Assembly (NCBI GenBank): GCA_001189215.1 | Contig: LFCR01000002.1 | Span: forward strand, 10,677 to 74,676 | Reading direction: 5' to 3' | DNA: 64,000 nt | From: Parcubacteria bacterium C7867-008 | GTDB lineage: Bacteria; Patescibacteriota; Minisyncoccia; Phycocordibacterales; Phycocordibacteraceae | Shown: piece by piece, positions 3,862-63,565 of the stretch | Numbering within the stretch: the stretch's first letter is position 1 | How the letters are laid out: each line of letters opens with the position of its first letter | Position numbers and translations under genes: made by a program | The notes under the pieces: generated by a model | Seen by the model: the letters and a program-made list of their open reading frames with translations, nothing else | Database searches by the model: none | What the model was told of the DNA's origin: nothing

Positions 3862-4239
3862 TTAGATGACTTCAGGTGCGATAGACGCGATGTTCTGCCA
3901 TCCGCGTTCGATAAGGTCGCGAGGTACTGGACCGAATACACGATTGCCCTTAGGTCCCATCTCCTTACCCTGCTTCTCGATGAGAACAACTGCGTTGTCA
4001 TCAAAGCGGATGTAGGAACCGTTTGCACGGCGATATGCCTTGCGCTGACGTACTACAACAGCCTTGTAGATGTCCTTCTTCTTTACTGCCTTACGAGGCT
4101 CTGCTGTCTGAACAGACACCACAACGACGTCTCCGATTTCTGCATAGCGACGCTTTGAACCACCGAGCACCTTGAAGACGCGCGCTACTTTAGCGCCTGA
4201 GTTGTCTGCGACGGTGACGATGGATTGTGGCTGCAACAT
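3862..4239 (-). CDS. rplN: 50S ribosomal protein L14
   Basis: MLQPQSIVTVADNSGAKVARVFKVLGG... Confidence 0.95.
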   Translation of the reverse strand: MLQPQSIVTVADNSGAKVARVFKVLGGSKRRYAEIGDVVVVSVQTAEPRKAVKKKDIYKAVVVRQRKAYRRANGSYIRFDDNAVVLIEKQGKEMGPKGNRVFGPVPRDLIERGWQNIASIAPEVI

Positions 4240-4256
4240 AGTAAATAAGTTAAATG

Positions 4257-4499
4257 CTATTTCGCGATAGCGAAGTGCTTGTTCTTAGAGATTGGACGGC
4301 ACGCGACGATTGTTACGTCATCTCCTACCTTCACCGTGTTCTCTGGGTCATGCACAAGGTATTTCTTCGTGCGTACCTGGTACTTCTTGTACTTAGGGTG
4401 CTTCACGTAGCGAGATACTGCAACGGTTGCCGTATCCTTCATGGCCGTCTTTACGACAGTTCCGCGGAAGGTCTGGGGGCGAGTAGTGGTTGTTTCCAT
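4257..4499 (-). CDS. rpsQ: 30S ribosomal protein S17
   Basis: RPQTFRGTVVKTAMKDTATVAVSRYVKHPKYKKY... Confidence 0.9.
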   Translation of the reverse strand: METTTTRPQTFRGTVVKTAMKDTATVAVSRYVKHPKYKKYQVRTKKYLVHDPENTVKVGDDVTIVACRPISKNKHFAIAK

Positions 4500-4507
4500 A
4501 GTAAATG

Positions 4508-4720
4508 TTATGCAGCTGCTTCTTCTGATACAGCACCGCGAGTACCGAGCTCGTAGAGTACACGTGCGATCTCCTTACGGATGCGTGAATGTGCATTCGT
4601 ATCTTTCGGACGAGCGCCGACAGATGCGAAACGAGTTGATCGAAGTTCTTCGCGCTTCTCAGCAAGCATCTTCTTGAGCTCTTCGGTCTTCTTCTCGGTG
4701 AGGGTAATTTTCTTTGCCAT
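4508..4720 (-). CDS. rpmC: 50S ribosomal protein L29
   Basis: 70-aa helical protein KKTEELKKMLAEKREELRSTRF, position between L16 and S17. Confidence 0.9.
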   Translation of the reverse strand: MAKKITLTEKKTEELKKMLAEKREELRSTRFASVGARPKDTNAHSRIRKEIARVLYELGTRGAVSEEAAA

Positions 4721-4729
4721 ACGTAAATT

Positions 4730-5152
4730 CTAGCTGCGGGTGATGACACTTGTCTTAAGAGGAAGCTTTGCAGCAGCGCGACGCATTGCGTCACGAGCCA
4801 CACCATCCGCTACACCATCGAGTTCGAAGAGAACACGTCCCGGACGTACTTCGAATACGAAGTGCTTCGGATCACCCTTACCCTTACCCATCTTCAGACC
4901 AGCTGCCTTCTCGGTGATTGGACGATCTGGGAAGATACGGATCCAAAGCTTTCCTCCCTTACCTGTTGCACGAGTGAGCACTTTACGTGCTGCTTCGATC
5001 TGGTTAGAAGTGATGCGGCTTGGGGTGATTGCCTTCATGCCGTATGCACCGAAAGATACCGTGGTACCACGCGTGTCTGGACGTGCGAGCTTTTCAGGGC
5101 TCTTGCGCATGGTCTGCCACTTTCGGTGTTTTACTTTCTTAGGAAACAACAT
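4730..5152 (-). CDS. rplP: 50S ribosomal protein L16
   Basis: MLFPKKVKHRKWQTMR...GKGKGDPKHFVFEVRPGRVLFEL. Confidence 0.95.
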   Translation of the reverse strand: MLFPKKVKHRKWQTMRKSPEKLARPDTRGTTVSFGAYGMKAITPSRITSNQIEAARKVLTRATGKGGKLWIRIFPDRPITEKAAGLKMGKGKGDPKHFVFEVRPGRVLFELDGVADGVARDAMRRAAAKLPLKTSVITRS

Positions 5153-52866: not shown

Positions 52867-53634
52867 CTACACGAGTGGCCAAAGATTCTTAAACACCTCC
52901 CGTTGATCATGCGCCATGAGCTTGTCATGGATTTCAACAAGGTAAAACGGTTTTGTACGGGTATTAATCATGATTAGATAGTCTCCCACAATCCACGTGG
53001 TGGAGAGGAAGTCAGCTGCCTCTCCCCAGAACTTAATATTTCGATTCTTAAGGTGTCCACGTGATTTAGCAAATTGGACTTCAATTGGCGCACGATTACT
53101 TAACAGCTTAAGGTCAATACCTTCTGGCCAACGGAGCCAGTACCAACTTATCCATTCGTTGTAGTGTTCAACAAAAGTATGGTCTTGGAATCCCCACCAG
53201 GTGCGCTCATCGGTAGCGAGCAAGTTAGCATCCCAGACTTCTGCTTGTTGATGGAGAAAAGAAGATATCTTTGATTCTTCAATAAATCGAACGGTTGGGA
53301 CCGGATACGCAGTCTTAGCTGAAATCTTGGAAAGCTCAGCTGCTACTTTCTTTAATGTCTCCTCCTTAAGGACCAGCTTTTGTCTCTCACCTTCAATAAG
53401 TCCAATGATCTCGTCAGGAGTTGATGGCATAAACACACGAGGTCTTCGTGTTGAGTCTTCCGTAAGTAAACCCTTCTCTACTAACGAACGTGCAACGCTA
53501 TATGCTGTAGTGCGTTTCATCTGCGCCGCCTTAGCAAGACCTGCTGGTGCCAACGGGCCATTTTGAAGAATAGCTTGGTATAGAGCCAATTCGCTGTCAT
53601 TTAAATTAAGCGATTCAAGTAGTTTCTCGTCCAT
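52867..53634 (-). CDS. TrmB-family transcriptional regulator
   Basis: N-terminal winged helix LALYQAILQNGPLAPAGLAKAAQMKRTTAYSVARSLVEKGLL; TrmB-type C-terminal domain. Confidence 0.65.
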   Translation of the reverse strand: MDEKLLESLNLNDSELALYQAILQNGPLAPAGLAKAAQMKRTTAYSVARSLVEKGLLTEDSTRRPRVFMPSTPDEIIGLIEGERQKLVLKEETLKKVAAELSKISAKTAYPVPTVRFIEESKISSFLHQQAEVWDANLLATDERTWWGFQDHTFVEHYNEWISWYWLRWPEGIDLKLLSNRAPIEVQFAKSRGHLKNRNIKFWGEAADFLSTTWIVGDYLIMINTRTKPFYLVEIHDKLMAHDQREVFKNLWPLV

Positions 53635-55018: not shown

Positions 55019-55052
55019 GCCGCGCTGCTAGTCAGCGCGGCTTTGTTTTATT
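55019..55052 (+). terminator. intrinsic terminator (gccgcgctg-ctagt-cagcgcggc-tttgtttta)
   Basis: seen in sequence. Confidence 0.7.
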
Positions 55053-56232
55053 CAAAATACTTCCTCTTCTTTAATTTCTCAGGCAAATAACTCTCTTCGT
55101 CATACATCTCATACCCCTTACCGTACTCAAGATCTTTCATAAGCTTCGTGGGTGCATTACGGATGTGTTTTGGTACCGGAAGATTACCCATCTTCTTTAT
55201 ATCTGCTTGTGCAGCGCGTAGTGCATCGTATGCAGAACGATCTTTCTTTGCTTGAGCTAGGTATGCAACACCATGAGCAAGATTTATTGCACATTCTGGA
55301 TATCCAATTACTTCGCATGCTCTAAACACTGCATTAGCCACCACTAGTGCTGTTGGTTGTGCCACGCCTATATCTTCTGAAGCGAAGATAACCATCCTGC
55401 GCGCGATAAAGAGTGGGTCTTCACCTGCTTCAACCATGCGTGCTAGATAATACACAGCAGCATCTGGTTGGGACGCGCGCATGCTTTTTATGAATGCACT
55501 GATAGTGTCGTAGTGTTCGTCACCCTTTTTGTCGTAGCGAAGATGCGGAGATTCTAGTGCTTTATTAAGAGTGTCAACGGTTATCTTTCCATAGAGACTG
55601 GTGGTGCTGTCTAGGAGAGTAAGGGCACGCCGTGCGTCCCCATTCGCATATCCCATCAACCATTCAAATGCATCCCTGCCGAGCTTTAGTTTGGCGCGCT
55701 TCACAATAGCTCGTAATGATTCTTCTGAAAGTGGTTCTAGTACAAACACTCTGCAACGAGACAGGAGTGCAGGTATCACTTCGAAGGAAGGGTTTTCTGT
55801 GGTTGCACCAATAAGTGTTAGCTTCCCACTTTCAACATACGGAAGAAGAAAGTCTTGCTGACTTTTATTAAACCGATGTATCTCATCTAGAAACAATACT
55901 TTTGGGCGCTCAGGTGCGAACACATCATCCGAGAACGGTTCTTGAAATGTGTTCTTCCCTCCCCTACCCTTTGCTGCTCCATCTACTATCTGACGAATGT
56001 CTTCCTTCCCCGCAGAAACGGCTGAGAGCTCGTATAGATCTGCATCTAATGCTTTGGCATAGATGCGTGCAATGGTCGTCTTACCGGTCCCTGGAGGGCC
56101 CCACAACAGGAACGAGAATCGATGTCTCTTCTCTATTGCAACTCGTATCGGCTTCCCTTCTCCTACCAAATGCTCTTGGCCCACGAACTCATCAAGAGTC
56201 TTAGGCCTGAGACGTGCTGCAAGAGGTTCCAT
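55048..56232 (-). CDS. rarA: replication-associated recombination protein A (RarA/MgsA AAA+ ATPase)
   Basis: LLWGPPGTGKTT, LFLDEIHRFNKSQQD, MgsA C-terminal domain. Confidence 0.9.
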   Translation of the reverse strand: MEPLAARLRPKTLDEFVGQEHLVGEGKPIRVAIEKRHRFSFLLWGPPGTGKTTIARIYAKALDADLYELSAVSAGKEDIRQIVDGAAKGRGGKNTFQEPFSDDVFAPERPKVLFLDEIHRFNKSQQDFLLPYVESGKLTLIGATTENPSFEVIPALLSRCRVFVLEPLSEESLRAIVKRAKLKLGRDAFEWLMGYANGDARRALTLLDSTTSLYGKITVDTLNKALESPHLRYDKKGDEHYDTISAFIKSMRASQPDAAVYYLARMVEAGEDPLFIARRMVIFASEDIGVAQPTALVVANAVFRACEVIGYPECAINLAHGVAYLAQAKKDRSAYDALRAAQADIKKMGNLPVPKHIRNAPTKLMKDLEYGKGYEMYDEESYLPEKLKKRKYFE

Positions 56233-56303
56233 ACATAAAGGGTACGCCGGTGTATCTGAAAATCAATCGAACACCATACCAAAACTCGTGATACCCTACC
56301 CTC

Positions 56304-56924
56304 ATGAAGAAGGTCTATATTGTTGGCATCCTGACGACTATTGTGCTTATTTTAGGTGTTTTCTACTTCGCTCAAAATAATTCTGGAGTAGATTTAACTA
56401 CTGTTACAGTGCAATTTCTTCCTGATAACAGTACGTACGGCAAAGGGACATTAACTCCACAGCAACAGCAAATTAAAGATGTAGCGTTTTCTCTCCTGCA
56501 AAAGTTTAACCATGCGAGCGAAGAGAATCGAGATGGCTATACCCTTCTTGGCGTCGGCCATACATACGTCGTAATGCGATACTATCCAGCAACCTCATTA
56601 TTCCCACGCGATTATGTGATTGATCTAAAAAAGAGAACCGTGCACGGACTTGAAACAGGCTATTCATTCCAAACCCGTGACACTATTGTCTACATATTTT
56701 CAAAGCGTATAGCGTACCTAAAACTGGACCAAGGATTTAGTATCGAACTACCAAATTCACTCTTGGGTGCTGATGAAACCTACGAGCCTAGCGACGGTCT
56801 TTTACCTAAACCAGAAGTAATCCAAACGGAAAGTTCTTTTGCCGTGTCTATTTTTACTAATGAATCTGAATATGGAAGTGTTGAGCATAAGAAGGTTCGC
56901 GAACAAACGTTTCAAATACCTTAA
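56304..56924 (+). CDS. hypothetical membrane-anchored protein, AT-rich
   Basis: N-terminal TM helix; start of a low-GC block. Confidence 0.45.
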   Translation: MKKVYIVGILTTIVLILGVFYFAQNNSGVDLTTVTVQFLPDNSTYGKGTLTPQQQQIKDVAFSLLQKFNHASEENRDGYTLLGVGHTYVVMRYYPATSLFPRDYVIDLKKRTVHGLETGYSFQTRDTIVYIFSKRIAYLKLDQGFSIELPNSLLGADETYEPSDGLLPKPEVIQTESSFAVSIFTNESEYGSVEHKKVREQTFQIP

Positions 56925-58697
56925 TTAATCCTCCCAGACAGTCGGTGTCTCCTTAGCGTTCTGAAGTGAGGAGTGGGCAACAATACTAACCATGTGTTCC
57001 TCTTTAACGTGATGCATTTGTGCAAGCTCTTTCTTATATTCAACCCATCGCTCTAGCAGATGTTTCTGCGACATCTTATCTAAATCATAGATACCCGGCG
57101 TCTGTTCACCAATCGAGAGAAGATGTGCAGCCTGCATGGCACCGATATACAATAGACAGCGAGTAAGAACAATATCTTCATCTGGTGTTGAATCTTTGAT
57201 GCGATCAAAGTTAATGGGATAGCCACCATTAAGTATTTTTAGATCTAAATCATCGTGAACCGTAACGATTTGGGTGCCATAAACATCTGAAGTTGGTTCA
57301 GCTAGTTTGAGTAACGATCCAAACTCCACATCTGCAGAGGATGCACTCACAAGAACTTTAGAGCCTGAAACACGTTCAAGGGCAGTACCAACAATTGAAT
57401 CAGTACCCACGGTTCCGACTATTAAATCGCACTTGTTTAGAAGTACATCAATTGAGCTTATGGAATTCTCTGGTACCGAGTCACTTGAGTGATAGGTTGG
57501 GTCATAACAAAGTACGGTTCTTCCCATTGCAGTAAGCGCTCTTTGCACTGCTCCACCAATACTACCTACACCTAGAATGCCTATCTGTTTTGAATCAGAA
57601 ATAGCACCTAGTTCATTTAGTTTCTTAACAACAGAGATTCCAATGAATTCGGATTCAATCAACTTCTTAATACCCGAAGAAGCAACGCTAATTATTGGTG
57701 GAGTCTTTATGGTGCTTCCCTCAACACGAGTGATCCCTCGTTGAGTTTGTTCAACACCAACAATTTGTACTCCCTCTAACTCCTTCCAGGGTATTGAGTG
57801 CCAGAGATCTCCACCATCATCCACAATTAGAAGCTTCTTAAAACGGTACTTCTTTTGGCTCTCAATAACCTTCCTCCACAACACTTCAATACTTTTCTGT
57901 GTAGCGAATTCATACGGCATACCTGCCTCCATATGCACTTTCGTTACGTCGTATCCAGATCTAACAAGATCATTAAATACTGAGCGTATGGTTGAGTATG
58001 GCTTTTCAAGAATATATATACGCCCAGGCGCTACGAGATGTGAAAGATGTCTAAAGAATGGAGAGCTATTGGGCAGTAAGTGGGTATGCACAATAATTGC
58101 GCAATCAGGAAGTCTTGATCGTGTTGTATGATCCGCTGCCCAATCAAGCAGAGGGAGAGAACTAATGGGCTGTGGTACGTGATCTGCTCGTGCCAATGCT
58201 ATGAAGTAGTTTCTGAATTCAGAAGCTTGTGCTGTTTCCTCTTGGAGTAGGGACGAACCAAAGTACATAACATCGCACTCCGTGTCTGCAATTAGTGTCC
58301 ACTCTCCTATTTGGCGAGAACGCTTAGTTAAAAGCCAGTCACTTGTTTCGAATAGTCCAATGAAATCTCCTGGTCCGAGAGTCTTAGTCCCCTTTCCTGC
58401 TTTTAACACAACAATATTTCCTCTTAGCACCACCCCAAGTGGGACATGCGCATATTGTAGGTCTGGATTAGAATCAATATCACAAGCTGTTAGTACTCCA
58501 TCGTTAACAACTTCTACACCTTTGCAATATTCAGCGACAAGAACCTTCCCACGCTTCTTTGCAAGGAATACCTGAAGCGCATTAGCATTAGCTACCGGTA
58601 TCTTGTGATATCCAACAGAAGTATCAGACGAAATACGTTCTAGTACACGCTGTACTACTTGCAGATCAGCCTCTTTCCATGAAACAGGTATGTTCAT
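56925..58697 (-). CDS. fusion protein: N-terminal cyclic-nucleotide-binding-like domain plus C-terminal S-adenosyl-L-homocysteine-hydrolase-like domain (with NAD-binding Rossmann region)
   Basis: GPGDFIGLFE cNMP-binding motif; KLLIVDDGGDLWHS (AdoHcyase DDGGD signature); IGILGVGSIGGAVQRALTAMGRTVLCYDP Rossmann. Confidence 0.5.
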   Translation of the reverse strand: MNIPVSWKEADLQVVQRVLERISSDTSVGYHKIPVANANALQVFLAKKRGKVLVAEYCKGVEVVNDGVLTACDIDSNPDLQYAHVPLGVVLRGNIVVLKAGKGTKTLGPGDFIGLFETSDWLLTKRSRQIGEWTLIADTECDVMYFGSSLLQEETAQASEFRNYFIALARADHVPQPISSLPLLDWAADHTTRSRLPDCAIIVHTHLLPNSSPFFRHLSHLVAPGRIYILEKPYSTIRSVFNDLVRSGYDVTKVHMEAGMPYEFATQKSIEVLWRKVIESQKKYRFKKLLIVDDGGDLWHSIPWKELEGVQIVGVEQTQRGITRVEGSTIKTPPIISVASSGIKKLIESEFIGISVVKKLNELGAISDSKQIGILGVGSIGGAVQRALTAMGRTVLCYDPTYHSSDSVPENSISSIDVLLNKCDLIVGTVGTDSIVGTALERVSGSKVLVSASSADVEFGSLLKLAEPTSDVYGTQIVTVHDDLDLKILNGGYPINFDRIKDSTPDEDIVLTRCLLYIGAMQAAHLLSIGEQTPGIYDLDKMSQKHLLERWVEYKKELAQMHHVKEEHMVSIVAHSSLQNAKETPTVWED

Positions 58698-58707
58698 GAG
58701 TACCTGG

Positions 58708-59433
58708 TTACGAACCCTTCTTTAGAGAACACGTATACACCTGACAGTTGTAGTTAAAGTCTGGGCCACTGTATGCAGGATCATTCCAGTCATTCTTTTC
58801 TTCAAAGTCATCTATCTTAAGGTTGTTTGTTTCAAGTGCTTTCTTAAAGCGAACAACATCTCCGGACTGTGAGAAACCTAGATACAATTTGCCATCTTCC
58901 TTAAGGAAATGTTTAACCTCTGCTAGAAGGGTTTCCATGGCGTAGTAATCAGCATCTATAACACCCTTCTCGAGATCATTTGCTGGAACACCGTTATGGT
59001 ATGGAAGATTAAATATGATCGAATCATATGCAATCTTTGGAACGTTTGAGAACACATCTGAAACCACAGCCACAGCATTTGTGAGCTTAAATTTCTCAAA
59101 GTTAATCTTAGTATTTTCAATAGCCGCAGGATTAATATCAGCTGCAGTGATAGATTTTGCACCACGCAGACCAACAAACACTGAAACGAGACCAGACCCA
59201 GGACCTAGCTCAAGTACATTCTGCCCTGAAAAGTCTTTTGGGATGTAATCAATCATGTACACACCTGCCCAGTCGTACTTGGGCGACATTACACCAGGTA
59301 GTACAGTAATTTCCTCGCCAAATACTGTTACGTCGTATGGGGCAGTATGTGTATTAACCTTATTCAAGTATGGACGTGTGGTTAGGTGAATCTGATCATC
59401 ATCGAGAGCGGTAAGATATTCTTTTTCGTTCAT
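58708..59433 (-). CDS. class I SAM-dependent methyltransferase, MTS/HemK-RsmC-like (NLPY motif)
   Basis: motif I VLELGPGSGLVSV; motif IV IIFNLPYH; 10 nt upstream of the fusion gene. Confidence 0.75.
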   Translation of the reverse strand: MNEKEYLTALDDDQIHLTTRPYLNKVNTHTAPYDVTVFGEEITVLPGVMSPKYDWAGVYMIDYIPKDFSGQNVLELGPGSGLVSVFVGLRGAKSITAADINPAAIENTKINFEKFKLTNAVAVVSDVFSNVPKIAYDSIIFNLPYHNGVPANDLEKGVIDADYYAMETLLAEVKHFLKEDGKLYLGFSQSGDVVRFKKALETNNLKIDDFEEKNDWNDPAYSGPDFNYNCQVYTCSLKKGS

Positions 59434-59472
59434 GGCCCAAATTTAACTTTAGTTTTCAGAAAAGTCAATTTA

Positions 59473-59559
59473 TAGTCATTAGTATATTCATATATATAAA
59501 TGACTAAATACATTGATATTTAATGATTTATTAGATAATATAGTCATAAATATATGACT
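59473..59559. promoter_or_regulatory. AT-rich divergent promoter region with two inverted repeats built on AGTCAT/ATGACT (TAGTCATT-N18-AATGACTA at 59473-59506; AGTCAT-aaatat-ATGACT at 59542-59559, overlapping the regulator's ATG)
   Basis: seen in sequence. Confidence 0.4.
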
Positions 59560-60297
59560 GTTAAAAATCAGAATCATCTGGAAAATGCTTTAAAGGTTGG
59601 TCTTTCTGCTAAAGCAGCAAGTGTATATGTAACGCTTCTCGAAGCCGGTTCTGCACTTAGTCCGAAAGCACTTATCATTAGAACCTCTCTTCATCGACAG
59701 TACGTATACGACGCACTATATGAACTGGAAGAACGCAGACTCATTAGTACATCTGGTGAGAAGAGAGCAATTAAGTATTTGGCCACTAGCCCAGATAGAT
59801 TGCTTCAAGATGTAGAAAAGCAGCGCCTAGAAACTATTGATGGCGTACAAGCGCTTATGAAGCTGTACGATCACTCCCCTGCTGGTTTCGTTGAAATTAT
59901 ACGCGGCAGCAAAGCAGCCATTGAGAGTGAATTCAAAATGATTACTGAAGCAAAGAGGGGTGATTATCTAGATATCGTTGGAGGGGCTGGCATGAGCTTT
60001 GTTCAACTTTTTGAAGGCCGTATTGAGGAATGGGAGCAGCTGCGTAAAGAGAAGCAAATTAAACTACGCTATATCGGTACTGATGAAGATGTTCGACACA
60101 ATAAAGAGATTAGCGTTATACAGAATGAATCACGTGCCATACCGGGTATCGGTAACATCGTTAATGTTTGTATACGCCCCGAAAGCGTAAGTTTTAATAT
60201 CTACGAACCCGAGATCGTAACAGTTCGTGTACGCAATCAAGCTGCTGTATTAAGTCAGCGAGCACTATTCGAAGTGCTTTGGAATGTGGCTAAATAG
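59554..60297 (+). CDS. TrmB-like winged-helix transcriptional regulator
   Basis: N-terminal GLSAKAASVYVTLLEAGSALSPKALIIRTSLHRQYVYDALYELEERRLI resembles the TrmB HTH. Confidence 0.55.
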   Translation: MTVKNQNHLENALKVGLSAKAASVYVTLLEAGSALSPKALIIRTSLHRQYVYDALYELEERRLISTSGEKRAIKYLATSPDRLLQDVEKQRLETIDGVQALMKLYDHSPAGFVEIIRGSKAAIESEFKMITEAKRGDYLDIVGGAGMSFVQLFEGRIEEWEQLRKEKQIKLRYIGTDEDVRHNKEISVIQNESRAIPGIGNIVNVCIRPESVSFNIYEPEIVTVRVRNQAAVLSQRALFEVLWNVAK

Positions 60298-60324
60298 TTA
60301 CCGTAACGCACTGTAGTAAATTTG

Positions 60325-60395
60325 TGCGGGATAGGAGAATCGAACTCCTGTCTGCTCTTTGGAAGAGAGCCATTTTACCATTAAACTAATCCCGC
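60325..60395 (-). tRNA. tRNA-Gly (anticodon UCC); no encoded CCA
   Basis: revcomp GCGGGAT TA ... GCTCT-CTTCCAA-AGAGC ... AGGAG-TTCGATT-CTCCT-ATCCCGC-A folds as a cloverleaf with 7-bp acceptor stem, U33, TTCGATT T-loop. Confidence 0.85.
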
Positions 60396-61066
60396 TCTTT
60401 TATTTTCTCTAACGCTACCTCACTCCAAACCTGAATCTTTCTCGCGAATCTTACCCCGAATTCCTTTCTTCCACGAGCCCGTACATTTATATGCAGGGTT
60501 CCAAATGGAAGCTTTTTAAATGTCCTGTTCTTCTTTTTGCTTCTTAGATCAAGAATAGTCTTTTGGAACTGGGACTCTGGAATCGTAGTCGCTTGAGACC
60601 AAAATTGCAAACATTGAGAGTTATCTAGATCAGGATATATATACATACGAGCCGTAAATTGATCAGTCTCAACTCCCAACAATCTGAACCAAGCCACCAT
60701 ACAACGCATTACCTCAGGGTTTGAATTACTTACAGCGACTATTCCATTTGTTTTTGACCCTTCACCTAAGTAGATCGCGAGTCCAAATATGAATAAATCT
60801 CTATTGGTTATTTCACCAATTTCCACTAAAACAGTCTCGCGTAATTCATTTAGCTCCGTTTTGAGTACTTGTGCTCGTTTTTCTCCCGCAGCTGCTCTCG
60901 CTTTTCCATAGAGTTTAATGACTTCTTCATTTGGTTTATATGGAACTTTACTCAGCCAATTACTTAGAGTGCTTTTAGGTATACCTAACTCCTTCGAAAT
61001 ATACAGATATGAATATCCCTGTTTTCGTAAATCAATTGCAGTTTCACGTGTTGGCAGATTATGCAT
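60386..61066 (-). CDS. HTH plus LAGLIDADG-like (degenerate) homing-endonuclease-like protein; 3' end overlaps the tRNA-Gly 5' end by 10 nt
   Basis: N-terminal HTH YSYLYISKELGIPKSTLSNWL; IFGLAIYLGEGSK resembles the LAGLIDADG dodecapeptide. Confidence 0.45.
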   Translation of the reverse strand: MHNLPTRETAIDLRKQGYSYLYISKELGIPKSTLSNWLSKVPYKPNEEVIKLYGKARAAAGEKRAQVLKTELNELRETVLVEIGEITNRDLFIFGLAIYLGEGSKTNGIVAVSNSNPEVMRCMVAWFRLLGVETDQFTARMYIYPDLDNSQCLQFWSQATTIPESQFQKTILDLRSKKKNRTFKKLPFGTLHINVRARGRKEFGVRFARKIQVWSEVALEKIKERD

Positions 61067-61143
61067 ACGCTGTAGAGGTAGCGTAACAATTCAGTGATCA
61101 ATACTTGATAAGGAGAAAATCAAATATTCCTTAACCTATCTTT

Positions 61144-62379
61144 TTGAACGTTCTGTTGTACCCTACAGCTATGAAAGTGGTAGTTCTAGGGATGGTTGCT
61201 GCGCTGGTATTCAGTGCAGGGGCTGCGTATCTAGTATTCGTACCAAATAGCCAGAAGCCAATTCCTATAGCAACACTCACTGCTGCAGCTGGTTCCACGA
61301 TCTACGACACATCCAGTATCGTGGAACTGTTTCGTCAGCTGTTCGTTCTTCAACAGAAGGTGAAGGAACTGCAACCACCACTGGCGACTACAACAATTCC
61401 CTTTGCTCCCAACGTTGGAACGACCACTACAAGCAAGAAGGCTCCAGTAAAGGCCGTGAAACCTGTTGCGCCAAAAGTTGTGGCACCAGTGAACACAGAA
61501 ACGAAGCTTGGCCTTGCGCTCCCTAAACTACGCAGTGCAATCGTAAATATTGTCTGTATCCCAAACAAAGCAGGTACAGGGCTACGAGGTATCTCTGGTA
61601 CCGGTGTCATTATCGACTCACGTGGCATTATTTTGACCGTGGCACACGTTGCGCAGTATGAATTGATTGCAGCTGCACGTCCTGATCTCCTTACGTGTGT
61701 GGTACGTACTGGTAGTCCAGCTGCTTCTGCGTATTTTGCTAAACCTATATATGTTTCACAGGACTGGATTGATCGTAATTCGAAACTACTTTCCTCTTCT
61801 GATCCCCGTGGAACGGGTGAGGATGACTTTGCACTGCTTGCCATAACTGAAACAGCCACCAAGACTCCCCTGCCAGCCAGCTTCCCTTCTGTTTCACTAG
61901 CTAACAACACACCAACTCTCAAACAGGGTGTTGTTATAGGTTCGTATGGTGCTGAGTTTCTAAGTACAGAAACTATCCGTTCTGGCATATTCCCCACCCT
62001 CGTATTCGCATCCGTTAAAGATCGTCTCACCTTTGGTTCTCAGATGGTTGATCTGATATCTCTTGGTGGCGGGGCTGCTGCACAAGAAGGGTCTTCAGGA
62101 GGAGGTGCAGTGAACGAAGACGCGCAATTAGTTGGGCTGATCACCTCACGTTCTAACGCAGCAAACCTAAACGATCGCGATCTGCGTGCTATCACAAACA
62201 CTTACCTGCAAAGCGCATTCCGTGAAGAGACTGGTGAGTCTATAGACTCATTCCTTTCTACAGATAGAAAATCTCTGGTGAGCGATTATGCGTCTGACGC
62301 CACAAAACTCGGGGCCATGCTCGTAAAGGTAAACCGTATCACCAATCAGGTTTCAATCTCAACCCCAACAGGATTGTGA
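61144..62379 (+). CDS. membrane-anchored trypsin-like (S1 family) serine protease
   Basis: catalytic triad context TVAHV ... DFALL ... QEGSSGGGAV. Confidence 0.65.
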   Translation: MNVLLYPTAMKVVVLGMVAALVFSAGAAYLVFVPNSQKPIPIATLTAAAGSTIYDTSSIVELFRQLFVLQQKVKELQPPLATTTIPFAPNVGTTTTSKKAPVKAVKPVAPKVVAPVNTETKLGLALPKLRSAIVNIVCIPNKAGTGLRGISGTGVIIDSRGIILTVAHVAQYELIAAARPDLLTCVVRTGSPAASAYFAKPIYVSQDWIDRNSKLLSSSDPRGTGEDDFALLAITETATKTPLPASFPSVSLANNTPTLKQGVVIGSYGAEFLSTETIRSGIFPTLVFASVKDRLTFGSQMVDLISLGGGAAAQEGSSGGGAVNEDAQLVGLITSRSNAANLNDRDLRAITNTYLQSAFREETGESIDSFLSTDRKSLVSDYASDATKLGAMLVKVNRITNQVSISTPTGL

Positions 62380-63122
62380 TCTGAACCATGAAGTTCTGGG
62401 TGTACCCACGCTCTGCACGCCTTAACCCCATCTGAAAGAAGAATATGATCAAGTTGTGACCGTGAGAAATTGTGTGTCACTTTCCCTTTCAAAGGATTCT
62501 TAAGTTTCACACCTTCAAATCGTTCTTCAAACAAATCACGTTCTGGGTACCACGGTACCGCTTGTGACAGAGGTGCGCCAAGCAGCCAGTTAAGTATCTT
62601 CATTGGACCGTATTCAATCACATTGAAATCTCCACACACAATTGCTGGTAGCTCTGGCTGGATGTGCCCCACTACTGCTTCGAACTCCTGTGCACGATTG
62701 TGTGGGCCCCAGAGCGTTAAGTGCACTGAGAATATTCTTGTCAGAACACCGTTACCTAAATCAATATCTGCATACACGGCACCGCGCTCTGTTACAAAAG
62801 ACCACTGAAACATGCGCATAAATCCTATGAACAGCCGTGTATGTAGTGGAAATCCGAAATCGAAGAATTGCAAAGTTCCTTGATTGGCAATCGAATGTTT
62901 TGAAAGTATTGCTACATAATTCTTTTCTTGTCTTTTATCAGACATCAATCGTATTACATCTACATGATAGGTAAGATGAAAGGGCATCTTCTTAATATAT
63001 GCGAGAAGTTCTGGTGTTACTTCTTGCAAGCAGAGCACATCAAAATCCAGATTATCAATAAACTTGCACATTTCCTTGAACTTAGTGTTGTAGCAATAAA
63101 CGTTCCAGGAATATATTTTCAT
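62346..63122 (-). CDS. endonuclease/exonuclease/phosphatase (EEP) family protein
   Basis: CLQEV ... GDFN ... SDHNPV motifs. Confidence 0.75.
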   Translation of the reverse strand: MKIYSWNVYCYNTKFKEMCKFIDNLDFDVLCLQEVTPELLAYIKKMPFHLTYHVDVIRLMSDKRQEKNYVAILSKHSIANQGTLQFFDFGFPLHTRLFIGFMRMFQWSFVTERGAVYADIDLGNGVLTRIFSVHLTLWGPHNRAQEFEAVVGHIQPELPAIVCGDFNVIEYGPMKILNWLLGAPLSQAVPWYPERDLFEERFEGVKLKNPLKGKVTHNFSRSQLDHILLSDGVKACRAWVHPELHGSDHNPVGVEIET

Positions 63123-63229
63123 GTGTATTAAATAGTACTGCGCAAAACCGATAATTCAATGAAGTCTGTATTGAAAGGACCTTTCATAAATTACCGCAGT
63201 CTGGGTCGACGCTAGAACTTTACTGGCAC

Positions 63230-63565
63230 TTGACAACAAATGAGTACTGTGAGATTATAGCTATGGGTCGGAGGCACTCGATGCCGACCTGCCTTAGGCA
63301 CTTTCCCTAGGAAAGACGCGCCGAAAAGCCTCGATTGGACTTTGCTACCAGTAGCGTAAAGAAATAGGCACTACGTTGATACCGCTTGGGAAACCAAGCA
63401 AAGTTTGAGACGTGTAATTGTTTAGTCTAAGCACTACAGGAACGTTAAAAAGCGATTGACTGCATCCTAGGGCTGCTATCGGTCCGCTCATCAAAACAAC
63501 GCGAAACTCTACGGAGTCTCGCAACAAGGTCGCTACCTCACGGTGCGGCCTTTTTCTTTTATAAA
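63230..63565 (+). ncRNA. candidate structured non-coding RNA of about 300 nt, identity unresolved
   Basis: no ORF above 60 aa on either strand; TTGACA-17-GATTAT promoter-like hexamers at 63230-63258; multiple hairpins (one with a GGGAAACC loop); intrinsic terminator at its 3' end. Confidence 0.3.
63527..63565 (+). terminator. intrinsic terminator (GGUCGC-11 nt loop-GCGGCC followed by UUUUUCUUUU)
   Basis: seen in sequence. Confidence 0.55.

Follow-up and report, generated by a model that had tools for sequence, protein, structure and literature searches.

Is the AT-rich block at 56304-61066 of the window (the whole 64-kb stretch of DNA analysed here) a single genomic island that integrated at a tRNA gene? 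The initial annotation proposed that it is. With moderate confidence, we arrive at a different answer: the stretch is an old accessory cluster in a variable spot at tRNA-Gly(UCC) together with a separate, tRNA-bound endonuclease-like gene, and not one island. Two unrelated things would flank the tRNA and jointly give one AT-rich stretch.

An AT-rich stretch on both sides of a tRNA gene

The sharp drop in GC content that had marked out this block was seen in windows of two sizes and gene by gene. In 500-nt windows, GC is 0.36-0.45 over approximately 56250-61250 and 0.46-0.50 before it; in 2-kb windows, 56.3-61.1 kb is the GC minimum of the window (0.397-0.427; lowest elsewhere, 0.441-0.447). 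The five genes of the block have GC of 0.389-0.427 and GC3 of 0.32-0.37, compared with 0.480 +/- 0.035 and 0.43 +/- 0.08 for the 43 other ORFs, and a five-gene run of such low GC appeared in 2 of 20,000 gene-order shuffles. On the other hand, the EEP nuclease gene at 62346-63122 is native and syntenic, and its GC of 0.417 is near that of the block; thus, low GC is a weak marker for foreign origin here.

The gene content described initially (a membrane protein, a methyltransferase paired with a cNMP/AdoHcyase-like protein, a TrmB-like regulator and an HTH ORF) agrees with the ORFs and domain matches (Table 1). The block was thought to end at the tRNA, the sole tRNA and sole Rfam match in the window, but it straddles it: 56304-60297 does lie on the 3' side, as claimed, whereas the HTH/LAGLIDADG-like ORF lies on the 5' side. 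Beyond that ORF stands the ancestral neighbour of tRNA-Gly(UCC), the trypsin-like gene, which is syntenic in L006-L009, L081 and 25 loci with the endonuclease-like gene; the ATG at 61171 is probably its true start. In relatives lacking the endonuclease-like gene, the entire trypsin-to-tRNA spacer is ~32 nt. Judging from the letters, the spacer between the two divergent genes in the window would hold the promoters of both, with a TACCTC box 8 nt ahead of an ATG.

Table 1. Features of the tRNA-Gly(UCC) locus and its flanks (window positions)
Feature	Position	Strand	Basis or value
rarA/mgsA, AAA+ recombination factor, conserved left flank	55048..56232	-	Pfam MgsA_C 5e-52, AAA
Spacer between divergent rarA and 206-aa genes	56233..56303	.	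sequence read directly
206-aa protein, N-terminal transmembrane/signal-anchor segment	56304..56924	+	GC 0.403
590-aa protein, N-terminal cNMP-binding-like barrel and SAH-hydrolase-fold NAD domain; operon gene 2	56925..58697	-	AF2 model, Foldseek
241-aa class I SAM-dependent N-methyltransferase, MTS/HemK/RsmC type, NLPY motif; operon gene 1	58708..59433	-	Pfam MTS 2.9e-16
Palindrome 1, AGTCAT/20-nt spacer/ATGACT, in methyltransferase/TrmB-like spacer; putative operator	59474..59505	.	sequence
Palindrome 2, AGTCAT/6-nt spacer/ATGACT, across TrmB-like start codon; putative autoregulatory operator	59542..59559	.	sequence
TrmB-like HTH regulator, 247 aa, divergent from methyltransferase operon	59554..60297	+	Pfam TrmB E=4.3e-5, 23.7 bits
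tRNA-Gly(UCC), fixed point between two variable flanks	60324..60395	-	ARAGORN; Rfam tRNA 71 bits
226-aa protein, HTH and single LAGLIDADG-fold domain, free-standing, homing-endonuclease-like	60386..61066	-	fold, motif, tRNA linkage
Spacer between divergent endonuclease-like and trypsin-like genes	61067..61143	.	sequence read directly
Trypsin-like serine protease, conserved right flank	61144..62379	+	Pfam Trypsin_2

An endonuclease-like gene at the 5' edge of the tRNA

The 226-aa protein matches the LAGLIDADG fold, with a weak match to Pfam Hom_end; none of the curated LAGLIDADG families, Pfam models included, reaches its threshold, and hhalign gave no match to I-CreI. In its LAGLIDADG-like motif, GLxLYxGEGxK, the GEG-x-K part with the acidic residue E102 is invariant. 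The reported overlap of the ORF with the tRNA is real and measures 10 nt: the last two codons and the TAG stop coincide with tRNA nucleotides 2-10, so that the stop is U8-A9-G10.

The family is large, has no name and is linked to tRNA-Gly(UCC) in hundreds of genomes. tRNA-Gly(tcc) follows straight 3' of the ORF in 77 of 80 loci, 41 of which have the stop inside the tRNA; of the three exceptions, two sit at contig ends and the third, L136, has the 5' half of the tRNA. Homologues directly precede tRNA-Gly(UCC) in all 78 evaluable loci, against a background of 1.6% of ORFs in 1.4 Mb with a comparable tRNA neighbour. A sister subfamily stands ahead of tRNA-Ile(tat) (6/6 loci), further members stand ahead of tRNA-Glu(ctc) and tRNA-Gln(ttg), and viral contigs of 141-252 kb carry three distant copies within their tRNA arrays; two-module tandem forms of the protein also occur. 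Given its 5' position and the attachment of its family to this tRNA, the ORF is not the island cargo that it had been taken for.

Presence of the gene differs between close relatives: L098 and L099 carry it, L007 and L008 (RarA 87-91% identical) do not, and it is present in the window and absent from L001-L003. L081, which is outside this RarA presence/absence comparison, also lacks it. Between L008 and L098, homology restarts exactly at tRNA nucleotide 1. In alleles without the gene, the box TGGTATYCT precedes the tRNA by 8 nt, the empty junction being TGGTATYCT, 8 nt and GCGGGATTAGTTTAATGG, and gene-bearing alleles have TCGAAC-N17-TATAAT-N6-ATG ahead of the ORF.

The 226-aa protein is best explained as a homing endonuclease that is free-standing and specific for tRNA genes. 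Its HTH plus single-motif LAGLIDADG family occupies one fixed site, between the promoter and +1 of tRNA-Gly(UCC). The protein may dimerise and cut the empty allele where the tRNA promoter meets the tRNA 5' end, and the repair that follows may copy the gene into the cut site. Gene and tRNA would share one transcript, in which the mRNA is often leaderless; with the stop codon being part of the tRNA, RNase P would strip it from the ORF and might thereby keep nuclease levels low.

A possible, though less probable, alternative is that the protein has been domesticated as a LAGLIDADG plus HTH DNA-binding protein, no longer a mobile nuclease, which is inherited vertically and kept for control of its own promoter and of the tRNA transcribed with it, or for another host function tied to the tRNA. 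The precedent is WhiA, a LAGLIDADG-derived transcription factor with two degenerate LAGLIDADG domains and a C-terminal HTH; to our knowledge, it has no catalytic acids and no linkage to tRNA genes. Several observations count against active homing, among them the sub-threshold LAGLIDADG matches and the missing I-CreI match noted above. Distances between endonuclease-like genes correlate with those between the adjacent trypsin-like genes (Mantel r = 0.84, a value that none of 2000 permutations reached), and inheritance therefore seems mostly vertical, or at least shared with this neighbour. The gene is under purifying selection (dN/dS 0.04-0.10) and uniform in length, which fits a host-maintained function and an active selfish nuclease equally. 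No decayed copies were seen in a search biased to intact ones, and comparison of the tRNA sequences gave no clear sign of co-conversion. Against domestication, the 226-aa protein carries its HTH at the N-terminus, has a single LAGLIDADG domain and keeps an invariant Glu, unlike WhiA with its lost catalytic acids; the gene is cleanly missing in several close relatives, where the tRNA promoter is different; it is AT-richer than its flanks in 47/47 loci; and separate subfamilies are bound to separate tRNAs, with copies in phage tRNA arrays, the habitat of free-standing homing endonucleases.

The homing endonuclease reading has counterparts in phages: T4 SegB and the T5 tRNA-region endonucleases are free-standing homing endonucleases in tRNA gene clusters. 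PMC13096335 calls SegB a phage homing endonuclease. Like them, the gene described here is free-standing, sits at tRNA genes and is present or absent between related genomes, and the tRNA arrays of large viral contigs likewise include its distant relatives. However, the phage enzymes are of the GIY-YIG or HNH type, whereas the 226-aa family joins an N-terminal HTH to a LAGLIDADG fold and resides mostly on Patescibacteria chromosomes; it also differs in being fixed at the promoter/+1 junction of one tRNA, in the ORF/tRNA overlap and in its strong vertical persistence. The single-motif homodimeric LAGLIDADG enzymes I-CreI, I-CeuI, I-MsoI, I-Vdi141I and I-Tsp061I are intron-encoded, within rRNA or protein genes, whereas the putative nuclease here is associated with neither intron nor intein, has the extra HTH and carries the GLxLYxGEGxK motif. 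Within the same phylum, two reports describe enzymes of the same superfamily with stable-RNA gene targets: PMC11270868 has LAGLIDADG endonucleases within rRNA insertions of CPR bacteria, and PMC13011429 has intron-encoded HNH, PD-(D/E)XK and LAGLIDADG endonuclease genes in Patescibacteria tRNA genes. Those genes lie within rRNA or tRNA intervening sequences, and the 226-aa gene adjoins the 5' edge of the tRNA from outside. By term search, the former report mentions neither tRNA nor free-standing genes, and the latter has intron-encoded genes only and mentions neither tRNA-Gly nor an HTH.

The variable interval between the tRNA and rarA

RarA of relatives is 75-86% identical to that of the window. 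By tblastn, RarA identity is 75-83% in the Paceibacterota genomes L003, L006, L007, L008 and L009. All five have tRNA-Gly(tcc) upstream of rarA and on its strand, at a distance of 17-470 nt; in L006-L009, the trypsin-like gene flanks the tRNA on its opposite side. This adjacency, which the check suggested in the initial annotation was meant to reveal, identifies the window's 4.1 kb between tRNA and rarA as extra DNA 3' of the tRNA. The same adjacency occurs in the endonuclease-carrying L098 and L099, and L002, compared with its close relative L003, has a different 9.0-kb insert whose start coincides exactly with the tRNA 3' end. The TrmB-like, methyltransferase and 590-aa genes form a core trio that occupies the same place in L001 (70-76% amino acid identity) and L081, accompanied by different extra genes in each. 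Its DNA identity of 69-71% in these loci is similar to that of flanking genes (69-82%); with the same site in two species, this means that the trio is old and inherited. Most of what the initial annotation had named as refuting an island is thus observed, although the GC dip is weaker in L001. The 206-aa gene has no counterpart in the L001 and L081 intervals and is an addition specific to the window's lineage; its protein gave no match in Pfam, NCBIfam, PADLOC or PHROGs.

We propose that 56233-60323 is part of a gene-flux hotspot in which site-specific recombination machinery is not involved. The core would have entered before the window's lineage split from L001/L081 and been inherited vertically afterwards, and the 206-aa gene would be a later arrival in this lineage alone. 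It is very unlikely that there was no insertion, with the window's arrangement ancestral, the genes lost from relatives with adjacent tRNA and rarA, and low GC due to weak constraint or low expression. This reading agrees with the age of the core module, which equals that of the flanks, and with the shallower GC dip in L001, but in the RarA comparison adjacency is spread over several branches (L003, L006, L007/L008, L009, L098 and L099) and interval contents in the window, L001 and L081 are wholly unlike those of L002, which favours repeated gains over one ancestral cluster.

Integration of all of 56304-61066 as one island by site-specific recombination at tRNA-Gly(UCC) is more improbable still and largely refuted, since the GC minimum, the tRNA-adjacent position and the empty tRNA-rarA arrangement in relatives are outweighed by a block lying on both tRNA sides, core genes in place in L001 and L081 with flank-like divergence, the separate tRNA-tied history of the endonuclease-like gene, a native EEP gene nearly as AT-rich, and the absence of both integrase and direct repeat. 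No integrase or recombinase was found in the window block (Pfam, NCBIfam), in the L081 interval (Pfam) or in ORF translations inspected from the L001 and L002 intervals. The tRNA with 35 nt of flank on each side has no match longer than 12 nt anywhere in the window, and the att-like partial repeat proposed at 56256-56270 reduces to an exact 8-mer, AATCGAAC, at 56265-56272, the sole tRNA match in the rarA/206-aa spacer and one at chance level. What stands of the tRNA-targeted island is the extra 4.1 kb at the tRNA 3' end: as in integrase-mediated islands, variable accessory DNA of low GC starts at the tRNA 3' end and relatives have an empty site. Unlike such islands, the locus has no integrase and no duplicated 3' tRNA segment, and its content is old, shared and apparently accreted piecemeal.

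A candidate regulon in the proposed hotspot

The hotspot core may be a self-contained regulon. The TrmB-like protein scores just below the Pfam cut-off (25.6 bits); its gene stops 26 nt from the tRNA 3' end and is found at the same position in L001 (76% identity), with a 248-aa ORF there in L081. The AGTCAT inverted repeats initially noticed at this gene are real, with four copies in 59474-59559 forming two inverted pairs (28 copies across the whole window); the same divergent spacer retains an AGTCAT/ATGACT pair in L001 and two ATGACT in L081. The protein is probably a repressor bound to both palindromes and controlling the divergent operon, in which a 10-nt gap separates the methyltransferase and 590-aa genes. 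Every NCBIfam match of the methyltransferase falls under its curated cut-off; its PDB relatives are Ta1320, METTL5 and RsmC, and it is 74% identical to its L001 counterpart.

The 590-aa protein has no Pfam AdoHcyase match, but its AF2 model (pLDDT 92) retrieves SAH hydrolases as all top 50 Foldseek PDB matches (E 1.7e-16, TMt 0.73). They also top the PDB profile search, in which the DDGGD, E-x-T, K...E and GxGxxG motifs align. Its N-terminal region matches CRP by hhalign at E 1.6e-4 (probability 50%). With AhcY it shares the two-domain fold (TMt ~0.7) and the aligned motifs (K...(D/E) and the NAD GxGxxG among them); it differs in its low identity (15-20%), in ~170 extra N-terminal residues forming the cNMP-binding-like barrel, in a Ser where SAH hydrolases have His301, which does not align, and in being methyltransferase-paired or -fused in some lineages only. 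The methyltransferase of the operon would act on amino groups (N-), and its partner would be an SAH-hydrolase-like NAD enzyme in which the cNMP-binding-like domain serves as a sensor; this second enzyme probably removes or senses the nucleoside by-product of methylation. The Ser at the His301 position counts against this role, as do distant homologues that are solitary, without a methyltransferase, in unrelated contexts. In P0112 and P0115, an MTS methyltransferase is fused to a 590-aa-type protein, and the homologue P0071 carries a precomputed assignment to the AdoHcyase_NAD family (PF00670).

At the far edge of the hotspot, the rarA/206-aa spacer contains -10-like TACCCT boxes, each 6 nt ahead of an ATG, a placement that suggests leaderless mRNAs.

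The interval between rarA and tRNA-Gly(UCC)

The AT-rich block at 56304-61066 was initially annotated as a candidate integrated island abutting tRNA-Gly(UCC). Only part of this hypothesis holds, and the feature behind it is an ordinary one; the more interesting part is the endonuclease-like gene at the 5' edge of the tRNA, which is an element separate from the hotspot module.

Coordinates of the features discussed, in the window or in comparison loci (L numbers)
Feature	Sequence	Coordinates	Strand	Remark
Second TrmB-like regulator, 255 aa	Window	52867-53634	-	Outside the block
rarA	Window	55048-56232	-	
206-aa protein	Window	56304-56924	+	N-terminal hydrophobic segment
590-aa protein	Window	56925-58697	-	
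MTS-type methyltransferase, 241 aa	Window	58708-59433	-	
TrmB-like protein, 247 aa	Window	59554-60297	+	
tRNA-Gly(UCC)	Window	60324-60395	-	
HTH protein, 226 aa (endonuclease-like)	Window	60386-61066	-	
Trypsin-like protease	Window	61144-62379	+	
EEP nuclease gene	Window	62346-63122		3' end overlaps the convergent trypsin-like gene by 34 nt (62346-62379)
Homologue of the 590-aa protein	L083	6001-7785		Between map and adk
Half tRNA-Gly(UCC)	L136	4686-4728		5' half only
Sister-subfamily gene	L176	3001-3675		10-nt overlap with the tRNA in some loci
tRNA-Ile(UAU)	L176	3666-3739		
Distant tRNA-array member	L169	~3983-4756		Motif GLGLYIGEG(T/S)K
Distant tRNA-array member	L170	3923-4498		Motif GLGLYIGEG(T/S)K
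Distant tRNA-array member	L171	1540-2235		Motif GLGLYIGEG(T/S)K
Distant tRNA-array member	L179	2501-3169		Motif GLGLYIGEG(T/S)K
Tandem two-module form, 532 aa	L181	2501-4099		

The closest relatives in the genome collection are Patescibacteria/Paceibacterota metagenome-assembled genomes whose RarA proteins are 75-86% identical. In relatives L003 and L006-L009, rarA has tRNA-Gly(tcc) on its own strand, 17-470 nt upstream, and in L006-L009 the opposite flank of the tRNA is formed by the divergent trypsin-like gene; thus, about 4.1 kb that separate rarA from the tRNA 3' end in the window are additional. At this position, relative L002 carries a different 9.0-kb gene set, with several TrmB-like regulators, an O-methyltransferase, and DHODH-like and DAP decarboxylase-like proteins, and comparison with its close relative L003 puts the edge of this set exactly at the tRNA 3' end.

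Of the features of an integrase-borne island at a tRNA gene, the empty site between tRNA and rarA in relatives is seen; a recombinase, an att repeat and recent arrival as one unit are not. No tyrosine or serine recombinase was found among the five block proteins with Pfam and NCBIfam or in the L081 interval with the precomputed Pfam table, and none was recognised in the ORF translations of the L001 and L002 intervals, which were inspected by eye only. The proposed att-like repeat amounts to an 8-mer at 56265-56272, which is at chance level: blastn-short of the tRNA with 35 nt of each flank against the whole window gave no match longer than 12 nt, and a repeat search of 54.5-62.5 kb returned only short chance-level matches. 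As for cargo, the PADLOC match is only to the generic methyltransferase domain of mad2, which rejects a defence system, and the PHROGs matches are to HTH or methyltransferase families only, which rejects phage cargo.

The same genes in the same place in related genomes would speak against an island, and this is what was found for a core trio of genes, which encode the TrmB-like regulator, the methyltransferase and the 590-aa protein. The trio occupies the same site in L001 (76, 74 and 70% amino acid identity, respectively) and in L081, with companions that differ in each genome, whereas the 206-aa gene is specific to the window. Recent acquisition of the block as one unit is not supported, because the trio is as diverged as its flanks in L001 and L081 (69-71% DNA identity to the window versus 69-82% for flanking genes). 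We therefore regard 56233-60323 not as an integrase-borne island but as an accessory module that is old and has been inherited vertically, within a hotspot of gene flux on the 3' side of the tRNA. We also conclude that the 206-aa gene is a later addition in the window lineage. The DNA just 3' of tRNA-Gly(UCC) thus turns over without an integrase in these reduced genomes.

The drop in GC content noted in the initial annotation is real: 2-kb windows across the block range from 0.397 to 0.427, the minimum of the window, and elsewhere reach at least 0.441. The five block genes have a mean GC of 0.410, and five consecutive genes that poor in GC arose in 2 of 20,000 gene-order shuffles. The endonuclease-like gene, AT-richer than its own flanks in 47 of 47 loci, alone accounts for the right-hand part of the dip. 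However, the EEP gene has a GC of 0.417 although it is native (syntenic in L081), and its region holds a local minimum of 0.372 (62750-63249). Low GC is therefore unreliable as a mark of recent import in this genome, and the dip is a poor guide to recent transfer.

The core trio and local promoters

The methyltransferase belongs to class I and carries an NLPY (NPPY-like) motif. Being related to Ta1320, METTL5, MJ0882 and RsmC, it is most likely an N-methyltransferase. The predicted structure of the 590-aa protein (pLDDT 92) adopts an S-adenosylhomocysteine (SAH) hydrolase fold over residues ~170-590 (3x2f, E 1.7e-16, TMt 0.73), and SAH hydrolases rank first when its family profile is searched against the PDB. 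The DDGGD, E316-x-T318, K344...E348 and GxGxxG elements align with SAH hydrolases, the histidine position of GH(F)D is a serine, and the Pfam AdoHcyase model does not match the protein. Residues 52-124 align weakly to the cNMP-binding barrel of CRP. The two activities are linked by two homologues of the 590-aa protein that occur as fusions with an MTS methyltransferase. Strict pairing of the two proteins is ruled out, as distant homologues of the 590-aa protein occur alone in housekeeping contexts. In L083, one such homologue lies within the cluster secY-adk-map-infA-rpsM-rpsK-rpsD-rpoA, a ribosomal-protein setting that suggests a housekeeping role in other Patescibacteria.

The 247-aa protein matches Pfam TrmB below the cut-off (E = 4.3e-5, 23.7 bits; gathering score 25.6). 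The AGTCAT repeats described earlier are present as four copies within 86 nt, which form two inverted pairs and lie in the spacer that separates the methyltransferase gene from the TrmB-like gene. One palindrome overlaps the start codon of the TrmB-like gene, and the paired palindromes are kept in L001 and L081. This arrangement suggests that the TrmB-like protein is a repressor that regulates its own gene through the AGTCAT palindromes as putative operators. The trio may then constitute a regulated methylation unit, in which the 590-aa enzyme would bind or degrade the adenosyl by-product under the control of a small-molecule sensor domain. A second TrmB-like regulator (Pfam TrmB, 9.5e-11) is syntenic in relatives L001-L003 and L005, and four further TrmB-like genes lie in the 9-kb variable interval of L002; this family is thus heavily expanded in these genomes.

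When the block was scanned for the sigma-70 consensus, shuffled sequence gave more sites than the block itself. Read by eye, local promoters seem to have a TAYYCT -10 box, often preceded by TG, 6-8 nt before the ATG or tRNA nucleotide +1. Such boxes are found in the window at 56233-56303 and 61067-61175, and upstream of tRNA-Gly(UCC) in L001-L009; with this placement, rarA, the 206-aa gene and the trypsin-like gene would all have leaderless mRNAs.

The endonuclease-like gene at the 5' edge of the tRNA

The reported overlap between the endonuclease-like ORF and the tRNA is exact. The reading frame ends in GAG CGG GAT TAG: the tRNA begins with the final G of GAG as its nucleotide 1, and the stop codon is U8-A9-G10. 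We surveyed the position in 80 metagenome loci encoding homologues that are 39-53% identical: tRNA-Gly(tcc) follows the ORF on the same strand in 77. Two of the three exceptions are at a contig edge, and all 78 evaluable loci place the gene at the 5' edge of tRNA-Gly(UCC). In the third, L136, the tRNA breaks off after the anticodon loop and just its 5' half is present, which could be due to a tRNA-gene intron or an assembly break. In 41 loci, the ORF has its stop codon within the tRNA, chiefly with overlaps of 15 nt (23 loci) or 10 nt (16 loci). Only 1.6% of ordinary ORFs have a comparable tRNA neighbour, and 1.4 Mb of unrelated loci contained no other family members.

The gene is missing from all close relatives of the window (L001-L003, L006-L009 and L081). 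It is present in the window and in L098 and L099, which group by RarA with L007 and L008, both lacking the gene. L008 lacks the gene and L098 has it, and their RarA proteins are 90% identical; a 32-nt spacer in the former is replaced by 774 nt of promoter and gene in the latter, and homology restarts exactly at tRNA nucleotide 1. Upstream of the ORF, loci with the gene show TCGAAC-N17-TATAAT-N6-ATG, a layout that implies a leaderless mRNA. In relatives without the gene, a TGGTATYCT box lies 8 nt before the tRNA, so that the empty junction reads as this box, 8 nt, and then GCGGGATTAGTTTAATGG. A fixed site with presence/absence polymorphism is what is expected of a homing endonuclease.

The tRNA itself is divergent. 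L001, L002, L006, L009 and L081 share an identical tRNA-Gly(UCC) despite RarA proteins only ~77-86% identical, from which the window tRNA departs at 10 of its 72 positions, located at the end of the D-loop and in the anticodon stem, variable region and T-loop. Its anticodon-arm pattern resembles that of the distant gene carriers L128 and L113; in a comparison for co-conversion, its overall identity was 62-63/72 to carriers and non-carriers alike.

Fold, family and possible meaning

In the predicted structure (pLDDT 86), the 226-aa protein consists of an N-terminal HTH (residues 6-38), a long helix and a domain (residues 85-226) with the alpha-beta-beta-alpha-beta-beta-alpha arrangement of the LAGLIDADG fold. 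The motif GLxLYxGEGxK ends predicted helix 88-102, and G95, G101, E102, G103 and K105 are invariant in 56 homologous sequences. Judged by its position, E102 would be the counterpart of the LAGLIDADG catalytic Asp/Glu. No curated LAGLIDADG family scored over threshold (best, Pfam Hom_end, PF05204: E = 0.022, 15.3 bits versus a cut-off of 21.1), and NCBIfam had nothing relevant. Alignment of the family to the single sequence of I-CreI with hhalign gave no signal, Foldseek against BFVD gave no match below E = 0.03, and tblastn searches of GenBank phages with the 226-aa protein and with a phage homologue gave no match.

A profile search collected 4,936 clusters at 50% identity in this HTH/LAGLIDADG-like family, whose members have so far been annotated only as "hypothetical" or "HTH domain" proteins. 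In six of six loci (L173-L178), a sister subfamily (representative P0330, motif LAGLFLYWGEGTK; 3,264 proteins at E <= 1e-10) is flanked by ftsH and tRNA-Ile(tat), with gaps of +7, +1 and -10 nt, at a site that precedes a rluD-like gene and rplS. Another member overlaps tRNA-Glu(ctc) within a tRNA array, and a 290-aa variant overlaps tRNA-Gly(tcc) by 10 nt. Three distant copies are found in dense tRNA arrays of viral contigs of 141-252 kb, and one in a 469-kb contig, where the array includes a tmRNA gene. Term searches of a paper on LAGLIDADG genes in CPR rRNA insertions (PMC11270868) and of one on tRNA-gene introns of Patescibacteria (PMC13011429) revealed no such tRNA-tied gene.

The best-supported reading is that the 226-aa protein is probably a free-standing, HTH-assisted LAGLIDADG homing endonuclease that targets the point where the promoter meets nucleotide +1 of an essential tRNA gene. 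This reading draws on the fold and the invariant acidic motif, on a strict site with cleanly empty counterparts, and on the tRNA-specific subfamilies, the copies in phage tRNA arrays and the AT bias. A gene between promoter and tRNA would ride on tRNA transcription. In loci whose ORF ends within the tRNA, cleavage by RNase P would deprive the mRNA of its stop codon, and this loss would limit the amount of nuclease.

Alternatively, the 226-aa protein could be a domesticated, WhiA-like protein without ongoing mobility, which we consider less likely. On the one hand, three results speak for domestication and against ongoing mobility: length is uniform across the family, dN/dS is ~0.085, and the divergence of the gene tracks that of the adjacent gene (Mantel r = 0.84, reached in 0 of 2000 permutations), which argues for co-inheritance with this neighbour. 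On the other hand, some pairs break the trend (for example, 56% versus 79% identity), and the neighbour could itself be co-converted. WhiA has two degenerate LAGLIDADG domains and a C-terminal HTH and has lost the catalytic acids, whereas the 226-aa protein has one LAGLIDADG-fold domain, an N-terminal HTH and the invariant Glu102.

Extending the homing-endonuclease reading to the whole family, we tentatively propose a very large superfamily of tRNA-gene homing endonucleases, an idea we hold as possible but not yet probable. Each subfamily would be specific to a single tRNA gene (Gly-UCC, Ile-UAU, Glu-CUC or Gln-UUG), recognising the junction of its promoter and 5' end, and exact insertion between promoter and tRNA +1 would take over transcription of an essential tRNA. 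The conserved U8-A9-G10 would be borrowed as a stop codon, and RNase P maturation would destroy the stop of the element's own mRNA. If so, this would be a selfish element that is hard to delete, self-limiting, and common to ultra-small bacteria and jumbo phages.

The family is uncharacterised, has thousands of members and a C-terminal domain without a Pfam model, and is tied almost base for base to the 5' ends of particular tRNA genes in Patescibacteria, other bacteria and large phages. If the proteins cut DNA, they would be a new natural set of HTH-assisted meganucleases with tRNA-gene targets, would offer a route for gene conversion around essential tRNA genes, and would physically couple tRNA processing to translation of a selfish gene. 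If they do not, the LAGLIDADG fold would have been domesticated a second time, in a manner similar to WhiA. Under either reading, many "hypothetical" genes acquire a name and a function that can be tested.

LAGLIDADG enzymes are known to have evolved from single-motif to double-motif forms. This step is mirrored within the family by L181, from a 70%-GC genome, where two HTH plus LAGLIDADG-like modules are joined in tandem 80 nt upstream of tRNA-Gln(ttg).
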